Of a stretch of 64,000 nucleotides of DNA, positions 6,001 to 58,521 are shown in pieces; positions within the stretch are counted from its first letter, which is position 1, and each line of letters begins with the position of its first letter. The stretch is taken from positions 38,957 through 102,956 of the IMG/VR virus record IMGVR_UViG_3300028591_000014. One strand, given 5' to 3'. Below the pieces are notes generated by a model, which worked only from the letters and a program-made list of their open reading frames with translations, was not told where the DNA came from and made no database searches. Source of the DNA: a virus (lineage: Duplodnaviria; Caudoviricetes). Position numbers and translations under genes: made by a program.

Positions 6001-9000
6001 TACAAATTCATAATAAGACTTCGTATCTATCTTCATTTTAGCATATTCTCCATTCATTATGGAGTCAAAGACCATTCTTAATAAGTCTTTTTTATTTCCA
6101 ATTCCAATAAATTGCAATATACTATTAAAGAATCTCTTTATCTTATTATGCAATCCCAAGCCTGCACGCATTTCTGCGTATTTTCGGAAATCCTCAGCCA
6201 TTTCTTCTTCTATTTCCTTAAATGAAGTAGTTGGCTTGTTTAATTTCGGATGTTTCTCTAAATACAGCTTGTACAAAGCCTCGCGTTCTTCTTCGGTATG
6301 AATTAAAAGGTTTATGAAGTGCCATGCCTCGTGAAAGTGTATACCTCTACCAGATCCTCTAGCAGACGACAATGTAAAGTTACCAGTAACTTTTCCAAGG
6401 GCGTCTATACTAGCATTCATTGCGCCATAAACAATCTCATCATTACATCCTCTAAGAATTCCATTTGTTACATATACGTTATTTGGATCTATGCCGAGAG
6501 TCTGATGAAGCCATTCTCTTGCTCGCTTAACATCAAGCTTACCTTTATTTTTAAAAGTTGAGAATACTCCAGTAATAGGTAAAAACTGACTAGGATTTGT
6601 AATAAATTCAGTTTTTATTGGTGTTACACTCCAATTTATATTACCATTATCGTCCCATACTCTCAATTGTATAACGGCTTCGCCGTCTATAACCTGACGC
6701 AATAAATCCAACGGGCTTTTTTCAACATAATTACGAAGCTTTGCATCCAATTCGGAATCGCTAGGTCGAATATTCACTCTAGACAATGCGTCTTTTACTC
6801 TAGCTCTAATGTTTTTTTCTGCAAGTTGTTTTTTATTTCCGGTAAAATCTTTAAACTCAGACGTATCTATTAGAAATATCTCTTTAAATGGCTTATCTTC
6901 TCGATTAAGTTTTTTGTTCAGATTATCAAGAGTTTCTTTCTTTTTGTCGACGCTGGCAAATATATTTCTAGCCTCTTCTATAATCTAGTTTATAGAATTT
7001 TTACGAGACGCTGCCGCAGTATTACCTGCTTTAAGTGATGCAGCCCTTTTTGACATCGCGTTCAACCTCTCGTTTATCTGAGATTTTAACGTGTCGTCTG
7101 CCGCAACAGCTTCTGCAAGATCAACAACACCATCTTTAACAGGTTTGTTTGTAACAATCTCCGCTGAATGTTCAACCTGTGCCATAGGTTTCTTCGCTTT
7201 GTTGTCCGCTTTAACTCCACTTGCAAATACATATGGAGCAACAAACATCTGCTTTGATAAATCAGTCTACAGCTTTCCGGTTTTCATCATCCATGCAGCT
7301 ACAGATACTGCTTTTCCTACAAGACGTTTACCTTTAGTCTTAAAGAAGTCGTCTTTAGAAAATGTAAGTTCATCGAGCCCTGCAATTTTTACTTCTGTCT
7401 CGTTAGGATGCAACGTAAAGTAATCCTTAAGGGCTTCTATAAACGTTCTAAACCTAAAATCTTCTTTATCATCAAGGAAAGTCATGCGCATGTATTTCTT
7501 GTCTGTATTCCAGTGGAAGTTTCTAGACAACAGATACACAACATGTCTTAATGCTACAGGATCGTTTCTAAGCTCTGTTTCCTTTCTATTGAAAAAGCCT
7601 CCTTGAACGCTGACATCTCCGATTCCAAAATCAATTCCATCAAAGTCTAATTGCTTTAAAATATAGTACGGTATGTTGCGAGCTTTGTTTTTATCAGACA
7701 ATAACGTATCTTGTCCGTTATTTACGATAAGATTTGCTATTGTTCTTTGTAACTAGTGAGTACCAAACGGCATATGTTTAGCGTTCAATCTACCAGTCAT
7801 AAGATAATATATAACCTCCGCGATACACGGAGTCATGCCCTCTCTAATCGTTCCAGTAGTAGGATCTATCGCAAGCTATACATCCTCTTCCTTTTCAATA
7901 GTTCTAATACTGCCGTCTGGAGCTTTATAGCGTTTAAAATTTAATTCGGACAACATTATAGGAATCCTACCACCAGACGGAGCTTCTACGTTTAGATATA
8001 ATTTACCAGCATAACCTTTTCCGGACAGTCGTTCGTTTTTATTTTGTTCCGTTTCAAATATAGGGGCTATTTTATATTTCTCATCTTCACTTGATGCAAA
8101 TTGTCCACGACCAACACCAAGTATTACCGGATTTTTAGACTTGCCATTAAGCTGTTTTGTAAGCTCTTCAACATCATCACTCAATCCGAAGCCGGCGTCC
8201 TGACCAATAACAGGTCTAAAGATTGGATTTCCGTTTTTGTTGCGAGCGTTTTCAATAGTTCCGTTACTTATTCTCGGATTTATTGGCATTACAGACTTAT
8301 TGACAACGCGGCTAGATGAATCAGGTATTATATAGGTTCCATCATTACCTTCTATACAATAAGCTTCTATTATTTGTTGCCTAAATGCATTTAAATCGTT
8401 TACCTGTCTGCGAATATCATCGTTTGTTATTATTGGCTTTGACGTATTATTTCTATAGTCAAAGCGTACTCGTTCTTCCATCTAATCAAACATGGACTAA
8501 CCAAACTTTGATATATACAACTCGCGCAAATAATTTATATCTTTGACTTTGGATTTATCAAACGGTATAGCAGCCGCTATTAATGCGTTTTCTAATGCAC
8601 CTCGAACCCTATTGCTATATTGCTGTTTACCTATAGCATTTATGTTCCAGAAACGCAATTCGCCACCCGCAGTCTTTCCCATATCCGAATTAGAATACGA
8701 TTCAGTATTTCGGAGTGTGGTAATATATATATCGTTGCCATCTTCAAGAATCAAACTTATTGTATACGCGTTTACATTAAATCCGCAATAAGCAGGTGCT
8801 GATTGATCAGTTTGATTTCCAGTAACAATATAATATTTTTTTACTTTGGCGAACCACCCACGCTGTGACAATTTGTCAGCAAGTTGTGCAGCCGTTTTTA
8901 TTGTTTTATTTCTGCCAAAGTTTACAGATTTTCCATTAACTTTTAATTCTAATGGTGTATTTTGTTCTTTCGTACCGTACGCATAAAAGAAGGTACTTTT

Positions 9001-12000
9001 TATATAGTCGCGTTTTACATTTCCGTGATTTGTACGCTGTTCTTTTTCCTCTGAAGTAGTAGTTCCGTAATCAAAATCAGTAACTTGAAGTGTACCTATT
9101 TGCTCATCTTCAAGTTGCATCATATCCTAACTATCCATCAGTGCCTACTATTCATCAAAGTCATCGTATAAATCTTCTACCGGATCCGGTTGATATTCTT
9201 CGTCATCTTGGTTATCTGGAGGTGTTTGCGGCATTTGTTCTCCGCCACCAGTATCTTCCCCATCTTGCGGTTCTGGCTTTTGTTCTCCAGTATCTCCATC
9301 TGTGTTATCATCTAATTCTTCTGGATCTATAGGATCTGGAGTGGTCTTAGGAGGCATAGTATTGCCGCTTGGTATTTGCTACCCCTGTGCAGGCTGCTGA
9401 ACCTCTTTTTGTTCGGTAGGAACATCTTTTCCATCAGGAGCTCCTAAAGTTACACCCAAACTAGATAACGGAACCGGCTGATTTTCTGGTTTAACTGGGG
9501 CAGGCGTTTCGTCTGATTTCGGCTTCTCCGATGTATCTTGCTTATTAGCATCGTCCTGACTCTTTTTATCGTCGTCATTCTGGATATCAGAACGTTTCTC
9601 GTCTTCTGTTTTAGCTCCTGACGGCGAAATTGTTATCACAGGCTTTCCATTTACCTCTAGTCCACCAAGTCCTGTAGCAGACTAACCTAATCCTGCGTTT
9701 TCATCCCACTCGTCATCGTCTGGCTCTACAGTAACACCAAGATCCTGGATTCGCTATGCTTGTATTTGTTCGTCTACCTTCTACTAAGCCTGTTTATCGC
9801 CATTTTGCGCCCTATTGATATCATCTTCGGTCAAAGGCCTATCGTGATTCCATTCGCGGTGAGCTACCTTTTTTCTATCTTCTACGTCTTCGAATTCCAA
9901 CATAGCGTATCTTTGGGCAGCTTCTTTTTGTATTTCATGAATAGCATCCATGTCTTCGAGTGTTTTTTCTTGACCTAAGGATTTTATTCTACGCGATTCT
10001 TTTCTTTGTTTCTTTACAAGATCATCAAATGGATTTTTGTTTTTACTAAGAGTATTCTCAGCATTATATATACCCTCTATTACGCTTTCTGGAATCTGTT
10101 CTGAATTAGTAAACTCACTGAGTTGACTGTTATATTTACGAACATATGTAGTACGCTCTTCTTTAGACAGATCTTTCCAGTCCTTACGTCGACCCTCATA
10201 ATGTATAGATTCTGGATCGACTCTACCGATAGTATAAACTTGATACGCAGGAAGCAAAGCATTCTGTATTGCATCGTTTAAAATCGTCTTGATAAACGCG
10301 TTACGTATATCTTGTTGATTTTTAAATTTAAACGATTGCATTTTTTTTACGTCTTTATCGTCTTTATATTTATCTAGACGTGCGCGTTCTTTTTTATACT
10401 CATCGTCAACAGAATCGATCATTCCAGAAAGCCTATCCAATCTGGCATCGTTTCCAGTAACTTCATCATTCAGCTTCTAAAGATCTTCTTTTCTTCCGTT
10501 TAACAATGTGCGTACATAATCCAGAGCGTTTATATATTCTGTGCTCAAAACAGCTTTTACATGATCTTCTATAAAATCAAGTTCCTAATCGCGTGTTGAA
10601 ATTCTTTGTTTGAGTTTTGAATCTTCCTAAGAAAGTTGTTTTTCAAACTCTTCGTCCACTCTTTTATCTATGGCAGAATTGACAGATTTTTCGTCTAATT
10701 CGTCCATATTTACACCTTCTGCTTCGAACTGTTGGCGCAATTCTTTTTCAATACGGATTCTGTTTATTTTTTTCCAGATTGATTCTTCTTTCTGTTGTTC
10801 AGATTTAGCCTTTTCTAATTCCGATAATATATAATCTTTTAGATTTTGTATATTCTATTTTCCAAATGTCTAATCTGCAAGTTTTGAATCTACATCTAAC
10901 TCTGACAACATATCAACCATTGCGTTGAGCTCACGTTTGGCGTCATTAGAATCGTTTTCTGCATTTTCATAATCCATTAGGTGATGCACTGCTGTCTATA
11001 TAAGCTGTTTATGTTTATCGCTGTTACGCTCTATATGAAGCGCATCCATCATCGCATCTAAATATGGATTATTATATTCGCTTGCCGTTTTGTGCATCAA
11101 ATCAATGTCACGGTCAACCCATTCTGGTTTAACATTTTCATCAAGAACAGATTTTAATTGATTTAAAGAATTTTCCATTCTAGAAGGAGTTATACCGTAT
11201 TTACTAAGGGCGTCAAAGTACATCGATATATGCTGGTCATCTTCAAATTTACCGTAATTGCGACCTACTATTTCATTTATAACACGATCGTTTTTAGCTT
11301 GTGCGATGAAGTCTCTTAAATTTCCACGACCCTCGGAAGGAAGTAGATTAGTCAGTGCACTAGTACCATGAAACATTGCTCCAGTAACAGCACCGATACG
11401 CATTGCTCGCTTAAGTTCTTCATCTCCGTTGTTTGGATCGCCAGGAAGTATACCAAGATAAGCAAAAGCAGCCTGCGCACTTATACCAAGGTCATCAAAC
11501 AATGATGGAATGTCGAACATACTTTCTTGCTGAGTGTAGTCATCATATTCTCCCCTAGAATATCTCTGTTGAGTTAAATACTGCACACCCTCTTCTTCAC
11601 CTTCCATAAAAGATACATATCCGGCTTTGGCAGCATTATTTTTCAAATATTTTGCACTCCTTGCAAAAGCCATTCTTTTTCCAAGATCCGAAGATATTTT
11701 TGTTGCTATTCTATCTATGTGATTATCAAGAATAGCTCTTCCGTTTCTTTCTGCAACAGTTCCTGCGGTTGTATTTCTTAGCCTATTCTGAAATTCCTTT
11801 TTCGCATTTTTAACAGCCCTTTCGTAAGACGGTCTTCCTATAGATAAACTAATATCTTTTAAGAAAGATCTGGTATAATTCATGTAAGGTATGGTCTCTA
11901 GATAATCTTTCGCAGCAAGAGCATTGTTGTGATTTATAAGTTGAGCAAGACCTTTTCTTGATTCTTTTACCTACTCATCAAATGTGTCGTCTCCTGTTTT

Positions 12001-25072: not shown

Positions 25073-26170
25073 TCAAGCGGAGGGGTTTACGTCCTTACCT
25101 TCTTTCTCGCCAGAAACGAAAGCGTCAAGAATACCCTTGAGACCGCTCATTGTAGACTCATTCGAGTTGTTCTGAGCAGAATAAATCTCAAGAACCTGCT
25201 TCGTCTTGCGCTGGATATCGTCAGCAGCACGGTACATATTCTCAAACTCGAGAGTAATAGCATCGTAGTGCTTGTCGAGCTGAGTTTCCATATCGGGCTT
25301 GATGATAGGCCATGTGCCCTCACCACGGTTCAGGATACCCTGATAACCCATACCCCAAGACTCGCGATCACGAACCAGCTTAGCGCTTGCGGGATACTGC
25401 TTACCAGGAGTCTTAACAATTGTAGCACCAGTGATGAAGTGCTTGTTCAGAGACTCCCAACCATCGCCAGCGGGATCAGTGTAATACATGTTAGCGTTGA
25501 AACGAACCTTGTTGGCCCAGTTCAGCGAATCTACACTGTCGTCATCGTCGTAAGGCAGAGCGGTAATGGTGAGAACACCACTAGCAGCACTAGCCTGAAC
25601 GCGAGCACGCTTCCAGTCATGGTTGATAATGTTAGCAATACCGGCAGCAATCGTAGTAGCCGTGTCGCCGTCCTTAGTTACATACTCGTAACTCTCAGTC
25701 CACTTGCGATAGCGGTGAGGCATATCCTTGTATGTCAGACGAACGATGATGCGCTTGCCTGCGGTAGAAAGCAGCTTGTTAGAACCGATCAGATCTGTAG
25801 CACCGGTGAAGGTGATAACAACAGAATCCTCGGTATCGGCAGCATACGACTGAGCGCTGTAGCTCTTGATATCACCGGCCTTAATCTCGTTAGACCACTT
25901 AATGATGGGGCGATACTCGGTCGTACCGTCTGACTTGCGCAGAGCGCAGTTCTTCTTCGTGATCAGACCAACCTTAATTGTATAAGCGTTAGCAACATCA
26001 GTTGAGTTGGCAATGTACAGCTTGTTTGAAGCTACATCAGGATCACAGTTCATAACAATGAACTTACCAGCGTCAGACGACGGAGTGTTCATAGCGCCCG
26101 TATTCGTAGGAGCTGCTGTTGCGAGACCACCGACATTACTGACGAGCACAGTATTTACATAATTTACCAT
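25073..26170 (-). CDS. Auxiliary capsid / abundant structural protein (365 aa, no TAG)
   Basis: Intact ORF with GC3-rich codon usage like the MCP; position after the ring genes matches the auxiliary capsid gene of crAss-like phages. Confidence 0.6.
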   Translation of the reverse strand: MVNYVNTVLVSNVGGLATAAPTNTGAMNTPSSDAGKFIVMNCDPDVASNKLYIANSTDVANAYTIKVGLITKKNCALRKSDGTTEYRPIIKWSNEIKAGDIKSYSAQSYAADTEDSVVITFTGATDLIGSNKLLSTAGKRIIVRLTYKDMPHRYRKWTESYEYVTKDGDTATTIAAGIANIINHDWKRARVQASAASGVLTITALPYDDDDSVDSLNWANKVRFNANMYYTDPAGDGWESLNKHFITGATIVKTPGKQYPASAKLVRDRESWGMGYQGILNRGEGTWPIIKPDMETQLDKHYDAITLEFENMYRAADDIQRKTKQVLEIYSAQNNSNESTMSGLKGILDAFVSGEKEGKDVNPSA

Positions 26171-37046: not shown

Positions 37047-39529
37047 TTTCCAGATACAGTTTTATTACGTAACGCATATTGACCTTTAACCTTTTCACGT
37101 TCAAGAGCCGCATCGTCCTTCTGTTTCTGAAGAGCCATCTCATGCTTCATCTTCTCACGTTCAAGCTGTATCTTCTTATCTTCGATTTCTTTTTTCTATC
37201 TCTACTCGTATCTCTTTGTATACTGTTCAGCTGACATCTTTTGTTGTTCAAGAGCTTGCTTACCTATTTCTATCGGATCAGGAATTTGATTATTGTTAGC
37301 ATCCTTTTCTTCAGTACCACGATATGCACTAATCTCAGCTACAGCTATCTTAGTCTGATTATCAGCATCAATCTTATAACGCTCAAGCTCCATCTTAGCC
37401 TCTTCAAGCATAAGCTCCTGCTGACGCTGTTCGTTCTGCATCTGTTGAAGCTGCATAGCCTGCTCTTGTTCAGCCTGCTGTTGCTGCTCTATCTGCTGCT
37501 GTTGACGATCTTGCATCTCCTTAAGCTTTTGCTTAATGATATTGAAGTTATCATTCGTAAGTACTTCAGCGGCTTCCAATAGGCTGGCTCCATTCTGCAT
37601 AGCCGGCTGGATAAGCTGCTGTAACTTCTGAATGTTCTCCATATCTTTAGAAGTATCGCTTACGAATACATCCATATCCTCATAATAGAACTTATCAGCA
37701 ATGTCTAAGTATGCACGCTCTCCATTATCGAAGACATAACTTAACTTCTTCTTACCAGTCTCCGCCCAAGCACCTTTGGCTGTATTTAACAGCATATTAA
37801 GAGCATGACGCTTACACTGATTATGAACCCAGAACAAAGGCTCTGTAATGTGTGAAGACTGTACAACAGACCGTTCCACATTACCTACAAGCTCACTAGA
37901 ACTAATAGCACCTTCACGCTGTTCTGTAATACCAGATATAGTACCGGCAAGCTGCTCAATCTTATCCATCAACTGAATATACTCAGCTATTACATTCGAC
38001 ATAGTAAGATCGAGTGCCGTAATCTAATTAAACGTAGCTGGTTTACCACCTTCACGTCCAGGAACGTTCCACCCCTCTTCGTATGGATTAATAAAGTTAA
38101 CACCCACAGAAGATAGGTAATGCATCCAACGCTCTGGAGTAATGTTCATAGACTTGGGTATCTGAGTAATATCCATATTTACTACCTTACCTTTATCTCT
38201 AGCAATAGCTAGTTCAAGGCGATACCACAGTACAATGTACATATACTGAAGAGGTTTAAGTATACTTACAAGAGATCTGGGTTTGCTATTTGTATTACTG
38301 TATATAGCACCTGTATACGGAAGTTTCTGTGAATTAGGATTGTCTATAGATACATGCTGATATTCTACAGGCTGTATACCAAAGTATAAATCAGAGCCAG
38401 CTCTATATCCTTCCCACACCTCTACAATCCAGTCTGGTGTAACATCTAACTCTAGACCAGTCTTTTTGTATGTCTCATCCACAATGTCTATCTGTGGGGT
38501 TCCTGTCTCGTCCATATAAGTGACATAGAATATCTTCTTAAAGGACTTCCAGCAACAATGCCATACATTTATATTATGCCTTGTTTTCTAATCAAATAGA
38601 GGATTATCGTAGATATGCATCTGTATTCCGCTAAAGTTATCTACTTTATCCTTGTCTCCCATATCGTTAGAAGGTCTACCAGTAAGCATCTCTTGTAGCT
38701 TATTTAAGTCTTTTTCTGTAAGCTTATCAAAGTATCTATCATATACTGTAGTCCAAGGCATTCTCATACGTCTACAACACCAAGAAGCGTCTTCTATAAA
38801 CTCTAAGTCCGGTGATTGATCGTATGCAAAGTATAAAGGATTAACACGTTCCAAATAAGGTTCTTCATTCAACACCCCCACGTAGTAAATCTCTGTACCA
38901 CTTATGAGGGCATCTTTCCAACCTTTTATAAATTCATTGTCCAAACTTAGCTTTTCGCGTAAGTAGGTCAATGTATGATACGCCGTGTTTTCTACAACAT
39001 CTTTGTAATCCTTATCCATATATTTAGCTATAGCTGCAGGTGGCATTATCTCTCCATTCTGGAGCTACTGCTAAAACTATGCTGCTTCCTCTTCTCCCAT
39101 CTGAGCCGTAATAGATGCCATAAGATACTGCATAAGCATCTCTTTCTCTTTGTCCATAAGCTCTGAAGCAGCTTCTTGTGATGTTCTTACTACCCTGAAA
39201 TTCATTGGCCTCTTTGTCTCTTCACCTATAAGGAGGTCTACCTTAGGCCTTATTATATTAAAATCCTGCGGAGTAGCTGGGAATCCATCTTCAACTTTAA
39301 ACGGGTTTGTTATACGCTTAAAGTCTTTCTCATCGAATATAGAATTATAAAGATTATAGTAGGTTTGTAATTCTCCAAACCGCGTTTTACTCATGCCGCC
39401 GGAGACAACGTTACCTTCCCCAATAATGTAGTCAACACAATCATGCTACCACTGCTCTGTCTTTTTGCTTAATGGGAGCTTCTGTTGAGGGAAGTTTGAA
39501 TTATATAAATTATCTTCTACTCTAACCAT
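37043..39529 (-). CDS. Portal protein (~828 aa)
   Basis: Four fragments co-frame. FPQQKLP..KK, FNIIRPKVDLLIGEETKRP, PRSLVSILKPLQYMY, ISGITEQREGAIS; follows terminase. Confidence 0.9.
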
Positions 39530-47352: not shown

Positions 47353-48228
47353 TCAATTCCAAAAGCTATTCTGTCCATAGATATTACCCCAATACGGAGT
47401 AGTATTCACAGCTGTAATATTAGGCCATTGAACAGGAACGGTATTAGGCTGAGCAGCCTTAATAGCGTCTATCTTGTTATCAAGTGCATTAAATGCGGCA
47501 TTGAACTGCAGTGTCTGATGGTCATTACTGATCTGATTTCTCATCTGAGTAATAATATCACCCTGCGTATTAATCTTGTTTTGCAGTTCGCGCTCCTTGA
47601 GATCACAGAACTCTTTGGTAATAAGTGTATTCTGATTACCAATAGCCGTAAGAATGGCGTTTGTATCACGCTCTGCCTGATTCTGCAGCGTATTAGTCTG
47701 CTGACATAATGCAAGCTGATCAGCTGCCTGATTAGCAGCCATCTGACTCTGCAGTGCGTTCGTCTGGTTTGCAATAGCCAAACGATTCTCGCAACAACAC
47801 TGACAGATCTGGCTAGCGATAGATGCATTACCACTCTGTATGGCGTTCTGAATCTGCAATCCGCTCATGCCCACCTGAGTACCTACAGAAGTAATAGCGT
47901 TGTTGAGTGTAAAGATACCATTCTGAACAGTGTTAACCTCAGTGTTTAAGAGATTAGCAAGATTCTGTATTGCGGTGCCGTTACCCTGTATGGCATTCAT
48001 CAGCAACTCACGACCAGAATCGTTAGCAATCTGGTTAGACAGGAAACCGCTGTTTCCATTTCCTCCCCAGTTACCATTGCCTCCCCAGCCCCAAATGAGC
48101 CAAAGGAACAGAATCCATATCCAGTTATTACCACCAAATCCACCGTTGTTGTTAAGAGCCATCAGCAGATTTGGATCAATGCTATTGCTCCCCATCTCAG
48201 GGAACATCATAATCTTAGAACTTTCCAT
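47353..48228 (-). CDS. Membrane-anchored Q/N-rich coiled-coil protein with QCCC motif (291 aa, no TAG)
   Basis: WIWILFLWLIWGWGG TM segment flanked by Gly/Asn tracts; ICQCCCENR; 29 Gln codons, none TAG. Confidence 0.8.
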   Translation of the reverse strand: MESSKIMMFPEMGSNSIDPNLLMALNNNGGFGGNNWIWILFLWLIWGWGGNGNWGGNGNSGFLSNQIANDSGRELLMNAIQGNGTAIQNLANLLNTEVNTVQNGIFTLNNAITSVGTQVGMSGLQIQNAIQSGNASIASQICQCCCENRLAIANQTNALQSQMAANQAADQLALCQQTNTLQNQAERDTNAILTAIGNQNTLITKEFCDLKERELQNKINTQGDIITQMRNQISNDHQTLQFNAAFNALDNKIDAIKAAQPNTVPVQWPNITAVNTTPYWGNIYGQNSFWN

Positions 48229-48313
48229 AATAATAAAAATGTTAATGTTAATAAAGTTAATTGTTAATAAAAAGACTCATTTACAGTTCTTAAGGGATGT
48301 AAATAAGTTCGTT

Positions 48314-48358
48314 GTTGTGCGAAGGGATTCGAACCCTTACATACCAACTATCGCACAA
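48314..48358 (-). ncRNA. Anticodon-less tRNA-like element A
   Basis: TTGTGCG-ATAGTTGGTATGT-AAGGG-TTCGAAT-CCCTT-CGCACAA-C: perfect 7-bp acceptor stem, D-loop consensus, canonical T arm. Confidence 0.7.
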
Positions 48359-48388
48359 TCCTCATTTTAGACAGTCGAGGTTCTGTTA

Positions 48389-49792
48389 TTACATGTATGC
48401 AGATATAAGTGTATCGGCTTTATTAGAAGAAGCCTCCCATGCTTCTTCGTCAGCTACTGTATATGGGAAATCTTCAAGAGCATGTGTGACACTGGAAAGC
48501 TCTCCCCAATATGTATCTGCTTGATATGTACTTATAGCAGATCTTGGAACCCATAAATTTAGAACTCTACTCTAATTAGCACGAGTTCCACTAACATCGA
48601 TGAGTTTGTCTTGTTTTTGCGAACTGTATGCAGTTACTGATGGAGGAGTTACATTGTTTATAATAAGATGTTTAATTCCACCTTCATTAGTACCACAAAA
48701 ACAACCAGTCTGTACTGTAGTTACATCTCTTAGATATACAATATCTTTATCCTATCTTGAATTTCCATAACCATTGGCACAAAAAGTACCATGACAGTTA
48801 TTACCTCCCTGATCAAATCCACCAACAAGACTTGTGAGTTTAGGAGCATATATATACTTAGAACCTCCACAAAAAGCACCCGTTGAATTTACAGAAGTAA
48901 GATTTGCGTAATTAAATACATTGGATACATTCTCACTATACGCAAATGGAATTCCGCCGTCGATCGTAGTTATATCATCCACGTTTATCTTACTCAGGGC
49001 TGTACAACCATAAAATGCACTTTTTTCTAATGTAGTCAAAGTACTTGGAAGCACAACTTCTGTAAGATGAGTACAGCCTTTAAATGCACTATCATATAAT
49101 GCAGTAATAGACCCCAAGTTACTAATCTTGGTTATACCAGAACCACTAAATATAGCCCATGATGTACTAGTTAATAATGGACAATTTATATCTATAGCCA
49201 AACTAGAACAGCCTCTGAAAGCGTTGTTTCCAATACTAGTCACGTTAGATAAACCATTTGGCCCAAGTGTTGTTAAATTTGTACAACTAACAAATGCTTG
49301 TTGACCTATCGTTGTAATACTGCTAGGAAGATATATAGACGTCAGATTAGTACATCCTTCGTATGACTTATTATCGACATTGGTTATTGTAGTAAGAGAT
49401 GTAAAATACTGAAGTTCATTGAAACTAGTGATTGTGGTATTGTTTTTAAATGCAGGAGCAGTCGCAAATGTAACTGCAGCAGCATCTGTTTCTTTAACAC
49501 CTATTCCATCGCTAGAACATGCAGCAATACATACTCTTTCTACTTCAGGATCTGCAAAATGTATATAATATGCACCAACGCTTATATCCAAATCAGAGAA
49601 CGCATTTGTTAGATATTCTACTTGATATCTATACGATGTAGGTACAGATAGGTAACCGGACAGATTACTACTCGAATCTAATGTACCAGAGTAAGCCAAT
49701 TCATACAACTTCTGTATGACACTGGAACTTACTGTCTCTCTAGTCTAATATTGCCTATAGGACTGAGCCTATTCTATTTTTAAGTGTGTCAT
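48389..49792 (-). CDS. BspA-type leucine-rich repeat (LRR_5) protein (~467 aa)
   Basis: HFADPEVERVC...SFNELQYFTSLT, repeated LP..TTIG..AF..C..L; ATG 49792, TAA 48389. Confidence 0.85.
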
Positions 49793-58391: not shown

Positions 58392-58466
58392 TGGTTACCC
58401 CGGCCGGTTCACGCCAGCTTCTCGAGGGTTAGAGCCTCGTGTGTTAGCATCATACACCACAGAGCA
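58392..58466 (-). tRNA. Amber-suppressor tRNA, anticodon CUA (atypical D and T loops)
   Basis: TGCTCTG-TG-GTGT-ATGATGCTA-ACAC-A-CGAGG-CT[CTA]AC-CCTCG-AGAA-GCTGG-CGTGAA-CCGGC-CGGGGTA-A-CCA; complete cloverleaf with encoded CCA; anticodon at 58430-58432. Confidence 0.85.
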
Positions 58467-58521
58467 GTGGCTGGTAGGGGAATCGAACCCCTCGGCCGAA
58501 GCCGTTCCAAAACCACCAAAC
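58467..58521 (-). ncRNA. Anticodon-less tRNA-like element B abutting the suppressor tRNA 5' end
   Basis: GTGGTTTTGG-AA-CGGC-TTCG-GCCG-AGGGG-TTCGATT-CCCCT-ACCAGCCAC: closing stem, UUCG hairpin, canonical T arm. Confidence 0.6.

Follow-up and report, generated by a model that had tools for sequence, protein, structure and literature searches.

In the MALAT1 and MEN-beta transcripts, cleavage by RNase P after a triple helix leaves a 3' end that resists exonucleases, and RNase Z then releases a tRNA-like RNA. TMV and TYMV carry an upstream pseudoknot domain, followed by a tRNA-like structure, at the 3' end. What RNase P, RNase Z and the CCA-adding enzyme recognise is the 12-bp stack of the acceptor on the T stem, together with the elbow made between the T loop and the D loop.

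The closest functional analogue of the phage element described here, with MALAT1/mascRNA also near, is provided by the t-elements of plant mitochondria. These are non-canonical, tRNA-like sequences bearing the motif GGTTCRANYCC and found within longer transcripts beside protein genes (PMC1920247), and their ends coincide with 5' and 3' ends of mRNAs whose formation is ascribed to RNase P and RNase Z (Forner et al. 2007, PMC1920247). The phage element shares with them this motif, a tRNA-like fold and a position beside a coding gene. However, the t-elements are organellar and are degenerate cloverleaves, whereas the phage element is viral and is a 45-nt acceptor/T-arm minihelix; no fused pseudoknot has been described for t-elements, while the phage element is preceded by one (PK1, below); and the ends of some t-elements have been mapped experimentally, whereas those of the phage element are predicted.

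The minimal tRNA-like element and its surroundings

The element belongs to a module of three parts, a pseudoknot, a minimal tRNA-like element and a hairpin, carried on a late minus-strand transcript of a phage whose genome, complete and flanked by direct terminal repeats, is an IMG/VR virus record of 102,956 bp. We refer to the stretch analysed, 64,000 nt corresponding to positions 38,957 to 102,956 of that record, as the window; unless stated otherwise, coordinates are those of the window and features lie on the minus strand, as do nearly all of its genes. Long frames open when TAG is read as sense, one of them exceeding 4,500 codons, indicating that the phage is amber-recoded. Among deposited phages, just two are related to it at the level of DNA, namely cr273_1 and cr272_1, crAss-like phages of the pig gut (Suoliviridae), with an identity of about 70% that is confined to the gene downstream of the element.

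With TAG read as sense, the element sits in a 160-nt spacer between two ORFs on the same strand. The upstream gene (48389-49792, 467 aa) encodes a BspA-type leucine-rich repeat, fibre-like protein (Pfam LRR_5, 1.4e-41) and, as judged from the ORF and its translation with TAG as Gln, ends at a TAA at 48389..48391; a second in-frame TAA at 48388-48386 overlaps into the pseudoknot. The downstream ORF (47353-48228, 291 aa, phrog_16490) heads a six-gene cassette to whose members PHROGs and Pfam assign no function, and its ATG (48226..48228) is preceded by an A/U-rich leader of around 40 nt. The spacer ends at this ATG, and the element lies directly upstream of the cassette, as first described.

Within the element (48314..48358), the acceptor 5' strand UUGUGCG (48358-48352) pairs with CGCACAA (48321-48315) to give a perfect stem of 7 bp. 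A 13-nt, GG-containing linker, AUAGUUGGUAUGU (48351-48339), includes the D-loop-like AGUUGGUA and leads to the T arm (48338-48322), in which AAGGG (48338-48334) and CCCUU (48326-48322) form a canonical 5-bp stem closed by the loop UUCGAAU (48333-48327). With no more than 13 nt between acceptor and T stem, neither a D stem nor an anticodon arm can be accommodated. The position of the discriminator is occupied by C (48314), after which comes AAC, so that no CCA is encoded by the 45 nt. In all these particulars the initial annotation, which had described the stem, the D-loop-like linker, the T arm and the lack of both anticodon arm and CCA, proved exact when compared with the sequence and its RNAfold structure. 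The acceptor/T-arm fold has a predicted energy of -13.6 kcal/mol (z = -2.3) that was equalled by three of 200 shuffles. The assignment rests on sequence and fold together with the covariation and the independent model match reported below.

The element thus has the top half of a tRNA, with a 7-bp acceptor stacked on a 5-bp T stem, a UUCRANY loop and the GG of the elbow, and it matches the GGTTCRANYCC motif exactly at 48325-48335. It is no cloverleaf in the sense of RF00005, having neither a D stem nor a 5-bp anticodon stem with a 7-nt loop. At its position ARAGORN called nothing, nor did Rfam at gathering scores; when the Rfam scan was made permissive, only chance-level matches appeared, with no RF00005 even at E values up to 10. 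These failures are consistent with the absence of an anticodon arm. Elements of this kind escape both ARAGORN and Rfam when gathering scores are applied, which is of relevance to genome annotation.

The likeness to MALAT1/mascRNA lies in a tRNA-like element placed directly behind a compact structure, and is a positional analogy only. MALAT1 is a eukaryotic nuclear long non-coding RNA whose cap is a U-A.U major-groove triple helix formed with an A-rich tract, whereas the phage structure is an H-type pseudoknot, in which a 4-bp and a 5-bp stem combine with an A-rich loop 3, and contains no U.A-U triple helix. Furthermore, mascRNA retains D-like and anticodon-like stems, both of which the phage mini-tRNA lacks. 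The corresponding Rfam family, mascRNA-menRNA (RF01684, gathering score 42.5 bits), did not match at the element; the sole matches, weak and sub-threshold, were to a second tRNA-like element of the window (element B, 17.9 bits) and to one of the long forms discussed below (15.5 bits).

Relatives of the element

For comparison, 80 IMG/VR loci encoding relatives of the downstream protein were assembled. About 25 of the closer relatives, contigs of crAss-like phages, carry the T-arm motif in the same spacer and at the same distance from the ATG, and metagenome contigs, from samples whose names we read as rumen-type, supplied 19 further mini units. The minis of the family measure 41-45 nt and consist of a 7-bp acceptor, a linker of 10-13 nt, the T arm and the acceptor 3' strand; UGG is present in the linker of every one.

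Covariation was assessed in two alignments, A1 with ten units, that of the window among them, and A6 with 17 other distinct units, the window being excluded. In A1, 95.2% of stem cells pair, compared to 32-49% in controls with a slid 3' partner, and double changes are present in 14 of the 21 pairs; none of 500 shuffles reached the observed values. In A6 the paired fraction is 99.2%, against 27-48% in the slid controls, and 11 of the 21 pairs are doubly changed. Acceptor, T stem and one stem of the pseudoknot (stem 2) were each predicted independently by RNAalifold, while the GG of the linker and the sequence GGUUCGAnUCC are invariant across the aligned relatives. A covariance model, R1, was derived from eight relatives, excluding the window. 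Its top match in the whole 103-kb genome falls at 48317-48355 (19.7 bits, E = 0.004), and no second family member was found there, the other matches being to T arms only. Since the paired positions covary, the very property whose absence from homologues had been named at the outset as telling against the element, and since R1 recovers the element with no knowledge of the window, we regard it as a real, structure-constrained member of an RNA family, and not as a hairpin formed by chance or a relic evolving neutrally.

The same alignments bear on a comparison with those tmRNAs that are reduced to their tRNA-like domain, which likewise join acceptor and T arm by a stemless D-loop analogue and lack an anticodon. 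Those molecules, however, carry G3.U70, the identity pair for alanine, together with a stub of helix 2 that serves SmpB. The phage element has no helix 2, and its 3:70 pair reads G-C in the window, with C-G in 7 of the 10 minis of A1 and in all 17 of A6.

In several relatives the spacer contains a longer structure. The long forms, of 86-108 nt (L005, 2788-2895; L016, 2783-2869; L026, 2832-2934; L007, 2845-2931; and others), show nothing unusual in acceptor, D arm or T arm and score 37-47 bits as tRNA in Rfam, but the 17-nt anticodon arm is replaced by a centre of 29-53 nt in which conserved GGGAGAC and GRAGCAC sequences surround a variable hairpin. No CUA, UUA or UCA anticodon was seen in those centres that were read, nor was a consistent structure or a known family found for the central domain. 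Intermediate forms of 75 nt (L018, 2758-2832; L097, 1380-1455; L117, minus strand, 8457-8532) have instead a bulged stem of 6 bp whose 9-nt loop reads ACUUAGNGN. As minis, 75-nt forms and long forms share the one spacer and all keep the top half, the middle of the molecule must be considered variable and dispensable within the family. Variation extends to the register of the stems, a subgroup of relatives (L003, 2890-2931; L534; L541; L542) having a 6-bp acceptor and a 6-bp T stem in place of 7 and 5 bp, and yet the 12-bp coaxial stack is retained. These 6 + 6 minis recall the 8/4 and 9/3 tRNAs referred to in PMC5389517.

This range of forms invites the explanation that the element is a decaying, functionless tRNA gene from which the D stem and anticodon arm have been deleted. 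Relatives do hold tRNA-like genes of 75-108 nt, and some of them further tRNAs, in the same slot, and the linker of the window is still D-loop-like (AGUUGGUA). Against such decay, the minis persist across much divergence with 99% pairing and many compensatory changes, and they are not recent copies of a single sequence. The 12-bp stack survives changes of register between 7 + 5 and 6 + 6, and GG and T loop do not vary, which would not be expected of a neutral remnant. We therefore consider decay very improbable. The features that relatives keep, namely the 12-bp stack, the T loop and a linker GG able to make the elbow, are those which RNase P, RNase Z and the CCA-adding enzyme read.

The gene upstream differs between relatives, while the module and the downstream gene are constant. 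The boundary could on this account be a recombination point, and the element a DNA-level site, either a junction at which fibre modules recombine or an attP core derived from the 3' end of a host tRNA. Identity to a host tRNA at an att site had from the outset been recognised as a result that would tell against an RNA role, and the search for it was negative. A 20-nt string from the T arm and acceptor occurs in 67 bacterial contigs (from Patescibacteria, gammaproteobacterial MAGs and Psychroflexus), of which none covers the full acceptor 3' strand and none comes from gut or rumen Bacteroidales. No tyrosine integrase (PF00589) was found in the complete genome. Moreover both strands of the acceptor are present and covary, unlike a block of DNA identity, and a DNA-level site seems to us barely credible.

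Flanking structures

Immediately 5' of the element lies an H-type pseudoknot of 27 nt, PK1 (48360..48386), that went unmentioned in the initial annotation and is supported by covariation and, for stem 2, by RNAalifold. Stem 1 pairs ACAG (48386-48383) with CUGU (48374-48371), stem 2 pairs CCUCG (48380-48376) with UGAGG (48364-48360), and the A-rich loop 3 reads CUAAAA (48370-48365). A motif of the PK1 type is found directly 5' of each element of the family. In A1 and A6, three to four of the five stem 2 pairs show double changes with 96-98% of cells paired, variants including CCUC/GAGG, CCCU/AGGG, CCUUA/UAAGG, GCUUA/UAAGC and CCCCG/CGGGG; stem 1 alternates in relatives among ACAG/CUGU, ACAC/GUGU and CAAG/CUUG.

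The position of PK1 is fixed with respect to both of its neighbours. In relatives it starts 0-15 nt past the stop codon of whichever gene is upstream, and 0-3 nt separate it from the acceptor stem. This coupling was also apparent in a pattern scan of IMG/VR, in which a tRNA-like element nearly always lay within 0-3 nt of the motif when the 3' complement was retained, and matches without that complement proved to be unrelated coding sequence. A generic pseudoknot scan of the whole genome found PK1 as a single copy, and the idea that it might be a repeated promoter or terminator motif of the phage was for this reason dropped.

On the 3' side, an AU-rich hairpin of 11-13 bp (48275..48308) begins 6 nt past the element. 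Its predicted energy of -9.5 kcal/mol (z = -3.9) was reached by none of 200 shuffles, and a run of five U residues follows at 48273-48269. A consensus terminator scan did not call the hairpin, which contains too few G-C pairs. It may be a cap for the 5' end of the downstream RNA or a weak intrinsic terminator. At least 10 of 32 distinct relatives, compared with 1.75% of shuffles, have a second pseudoknot, built much like PK1, 3' of the element, situated between it and the A/U-rich leader (L004, L027, L102, L107, L538, L542, L548 and others); this pseudoknot covaries, an example being composed of ACAG, UCCA, CUGU, AUAAC and UGGA. Other relatives carry a hairpin at the 3' position. Where the module is missing altogether (L009, L013, L014 and L017), terminator-like hairpins occupy the same spacer, which marks it as a region where transcripts end.

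Given this arrangement, PK1 and the tRNA-like element might together remain as the 3' end of the upstream mRNA, produced by termination or trimming at the hairpin, and stabilise that mRNA or aid its translation much as in plant RNA viruses. There is indeed a resemblance to the 3' UTR of TMV and TYMV, for there too one or more pseudoknots lie directly 5' of a tRNA-like element and past the last stop codon, and the hairpin with its U5 run is suitably placed downstream. The viral structures, however, form the terminus of a genome, can be aminoacylated, and possess a pseudoknotted acceptor arm and an anticodon-like domain, whereas the phage element is internal to an operon of a DNA phage; its acceptor is a plain stem, not a pseudoknotted one, and it encodes no CCA. 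Acceptor/T-arm minihelices, and the TYMV tRNA-like structure as well, are cut in vitro by RNase P of bacteria, so that a junction left uncut in a bacterial cell is improbable. Retention of the whole as an mRNA 3' end consequently appears to us distinctly unlikely.

Predicted processing and other tRNA-like elements of the genome

The apparent selection of features read by the enzymes of tRNA end formation, and the presence of structures flanking both predicted cut sites, lead us to propose that the element is a site of RNase P/RNase Z punctuation with capped ends on the late transcript, a reading to which, from the analysis as a whole, we give about an even chance. We infer each of the cleavage steps, and the protective role of the flanking structures, as follows. 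The elbow would be made by docking of the linker GG on the T loop. Host RNase P would then cut at the junction of pseudoknot and acceptor, between 48359 and 48358, upon which the mRNA of the upstream fibre gene would end in the compact PK1, with its A-rich loop, and resist 3' exonucleases. RNase Z, or exonucleolytic trimming, at about 48314 would free a mini-tRNA of some 45 nt, and the RNA of the downstream cassette would begin a few nt before the stable hairpin. Searches of the phage genome revealed neither a CCA-adding enzyme nor RtcB nor an RNA ligase, so that any processing would fall to host enzymes.

Rather more tentatively, and with somewhat less than even confidence, we suggest that this rumen and gut crAss-like lineage possesses a counterpart of the MALAT1 triple-helix/mascRNA device, in which a pseudoknot caps the upstream 3' end and a pseudoknot or hairpin caps the downstream 5' end, the released mini-tRNA perhaps having a further role. 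Some considerations weigh on the other side. An element without D arm and anticodon arm may be a poor substrate for RNase P in Bacteroidota, which counts against punctuation, and it is conceivable that the hairpin and its U5 run serve just as a terminator, which would leave no place for capping of a downstream 5' end.

The possibility of a further role can be taken to its limit by supposing that the released mini-tRNA is itself the functional product, which binds or titrates a factor recognising the acceptor, T arm or elbow, the flanking structures merely tidying up an unavoidable RNase P cut. Candidate partners would be a defence toxin acting on the acceptor end, an enzyme of tRNA modification or of CCA addition, or a protein of the phage. 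The strict retention of the GG/T-loop elbow would suit such a role, as would the conserved, non-anticodon centre of the long forms, which looks like a binding site and hints at a possible function for the released RNA that punctuation would not cover. In addition, tRNA-like elements that lack an anticodon occur at least three times in the genome and are unrelated. Conversely, the minis are well conserved despite lacking the central domain, and the coupling of PK1 to the stop codon points to a role at the mRNA end. Most known tRNA-targeting defence nucleases cut anticodon loops, and these, the usual target, are absent from the elements. The same absence, along with a coupled PK1 for which a decoy would have no use, leaves unsupported the earlier suggestion that the elements are decoys for tRNA-targeting defences. 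We think it unlikely that the mini-tRNA is the principal product.

If punctuation with capped ends does operate and the element is cut as predicted, it would constitute a compact and portable RNA device by which the phage borrows the host's enzymes of tRNA end formation. An operon transcript would be split and the stability of each piece set separately, a logic known from mitochondria and from human long non-coding RNA; no phage precedent for a mini-tRNA or a capped-end module was found in Rfam or in the literature searched. The unit of pseudoknot and mini-tRNA, at about 75 nt, is small enough for direct tests and could serve as an mRNA-end-forming part for Bacteroidota. Because the module is present as a single copy in the genome, it cannot represent a general punctuation system of the phage.

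The initial annotation had grouped the element, as A, with two others, B and C, in a possible set of mini-tRNAs that would punctuate the late transcript. Its view of A as a tRNA top-half mimic, in the sense of the late genes and at a gene boundary, is borne out, and the mimic is indeed real and selected. The notion of one repeated set is not, for A and PK1 are single-copy in the genome and R1 matches B by its T arm only (58477-58491). Element B (58467-58521) has no anticodon and is composed of a closing stem, a canonical T arm and a hairpin whose loop reads UUCG, and a descriptor scan of the window for further mini-tRNAs returned mostly noise, only A and B standing out. A third tRNA-like element, at genome positions 9270-9330 on the plus strand (L231), has an 8-bp acceptor, a T arm and an encoded CCACCA. 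It is located beside a putative tmRNA piece and about 100 nt upstream of a tRNA-Arg, with a group I intron nearby (genome 8153-8408; Rfam, 83.6 bits), and here too the R1 match is to the T arm alone. Since this element and B have only the T arm in common with A, and PK1 is absent from both, they are better viewed as separate inventions or acquisitions than as copies.

Element B abuts the 5' end of a further tRNA, ending one base before its position 1. This is an amber-suppressor tRNA with anticodon CUA (58395-58466), detected in a local permissive scan (RF00005, 33.6 bits) and missed by ARAGORN and by a scan of the whole window at Rfam gathering scores; its T loop has 6 nt and its D loop has no GG. 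The oversight bears on reports of recoded Crassvirales 'lacking' suppressor tRNAs. A tRNA-like stretch on the plus strand at about 25150-25250 of the genome (L232, 5250-5350), with a canonical T arm, a hairpin loop containing CUA and a long extra arm, was likewise called neither by ARAGORN nor at Rfam gathering scores and may be a second unusual suppressor candidate. The loop of one 75-nt relative, L018, includes UUAGAG, which is exactly complementary to CUCUAA, a stretch of the anticodon loop in the window's suppressor tRNA; this match could be a coincidence or reflect a loop-loop contact.

Minis of about 41-48 nt with the same order of acceptor, linker and T arm were also seen in other IMG/VR contigs, among the matches listed by loose pattern scans that also picked up ordinary tRNAs (L152, 2009-2050; L138, from 2364; L302, minus strand, from 444; L134, from 9078; L202; L220; and L219, from 5780). 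PK1 accompanies none of these seven. That of L152, located after a terminator hairpin, has a linker of the AAUGGUUACU type, as in the window.
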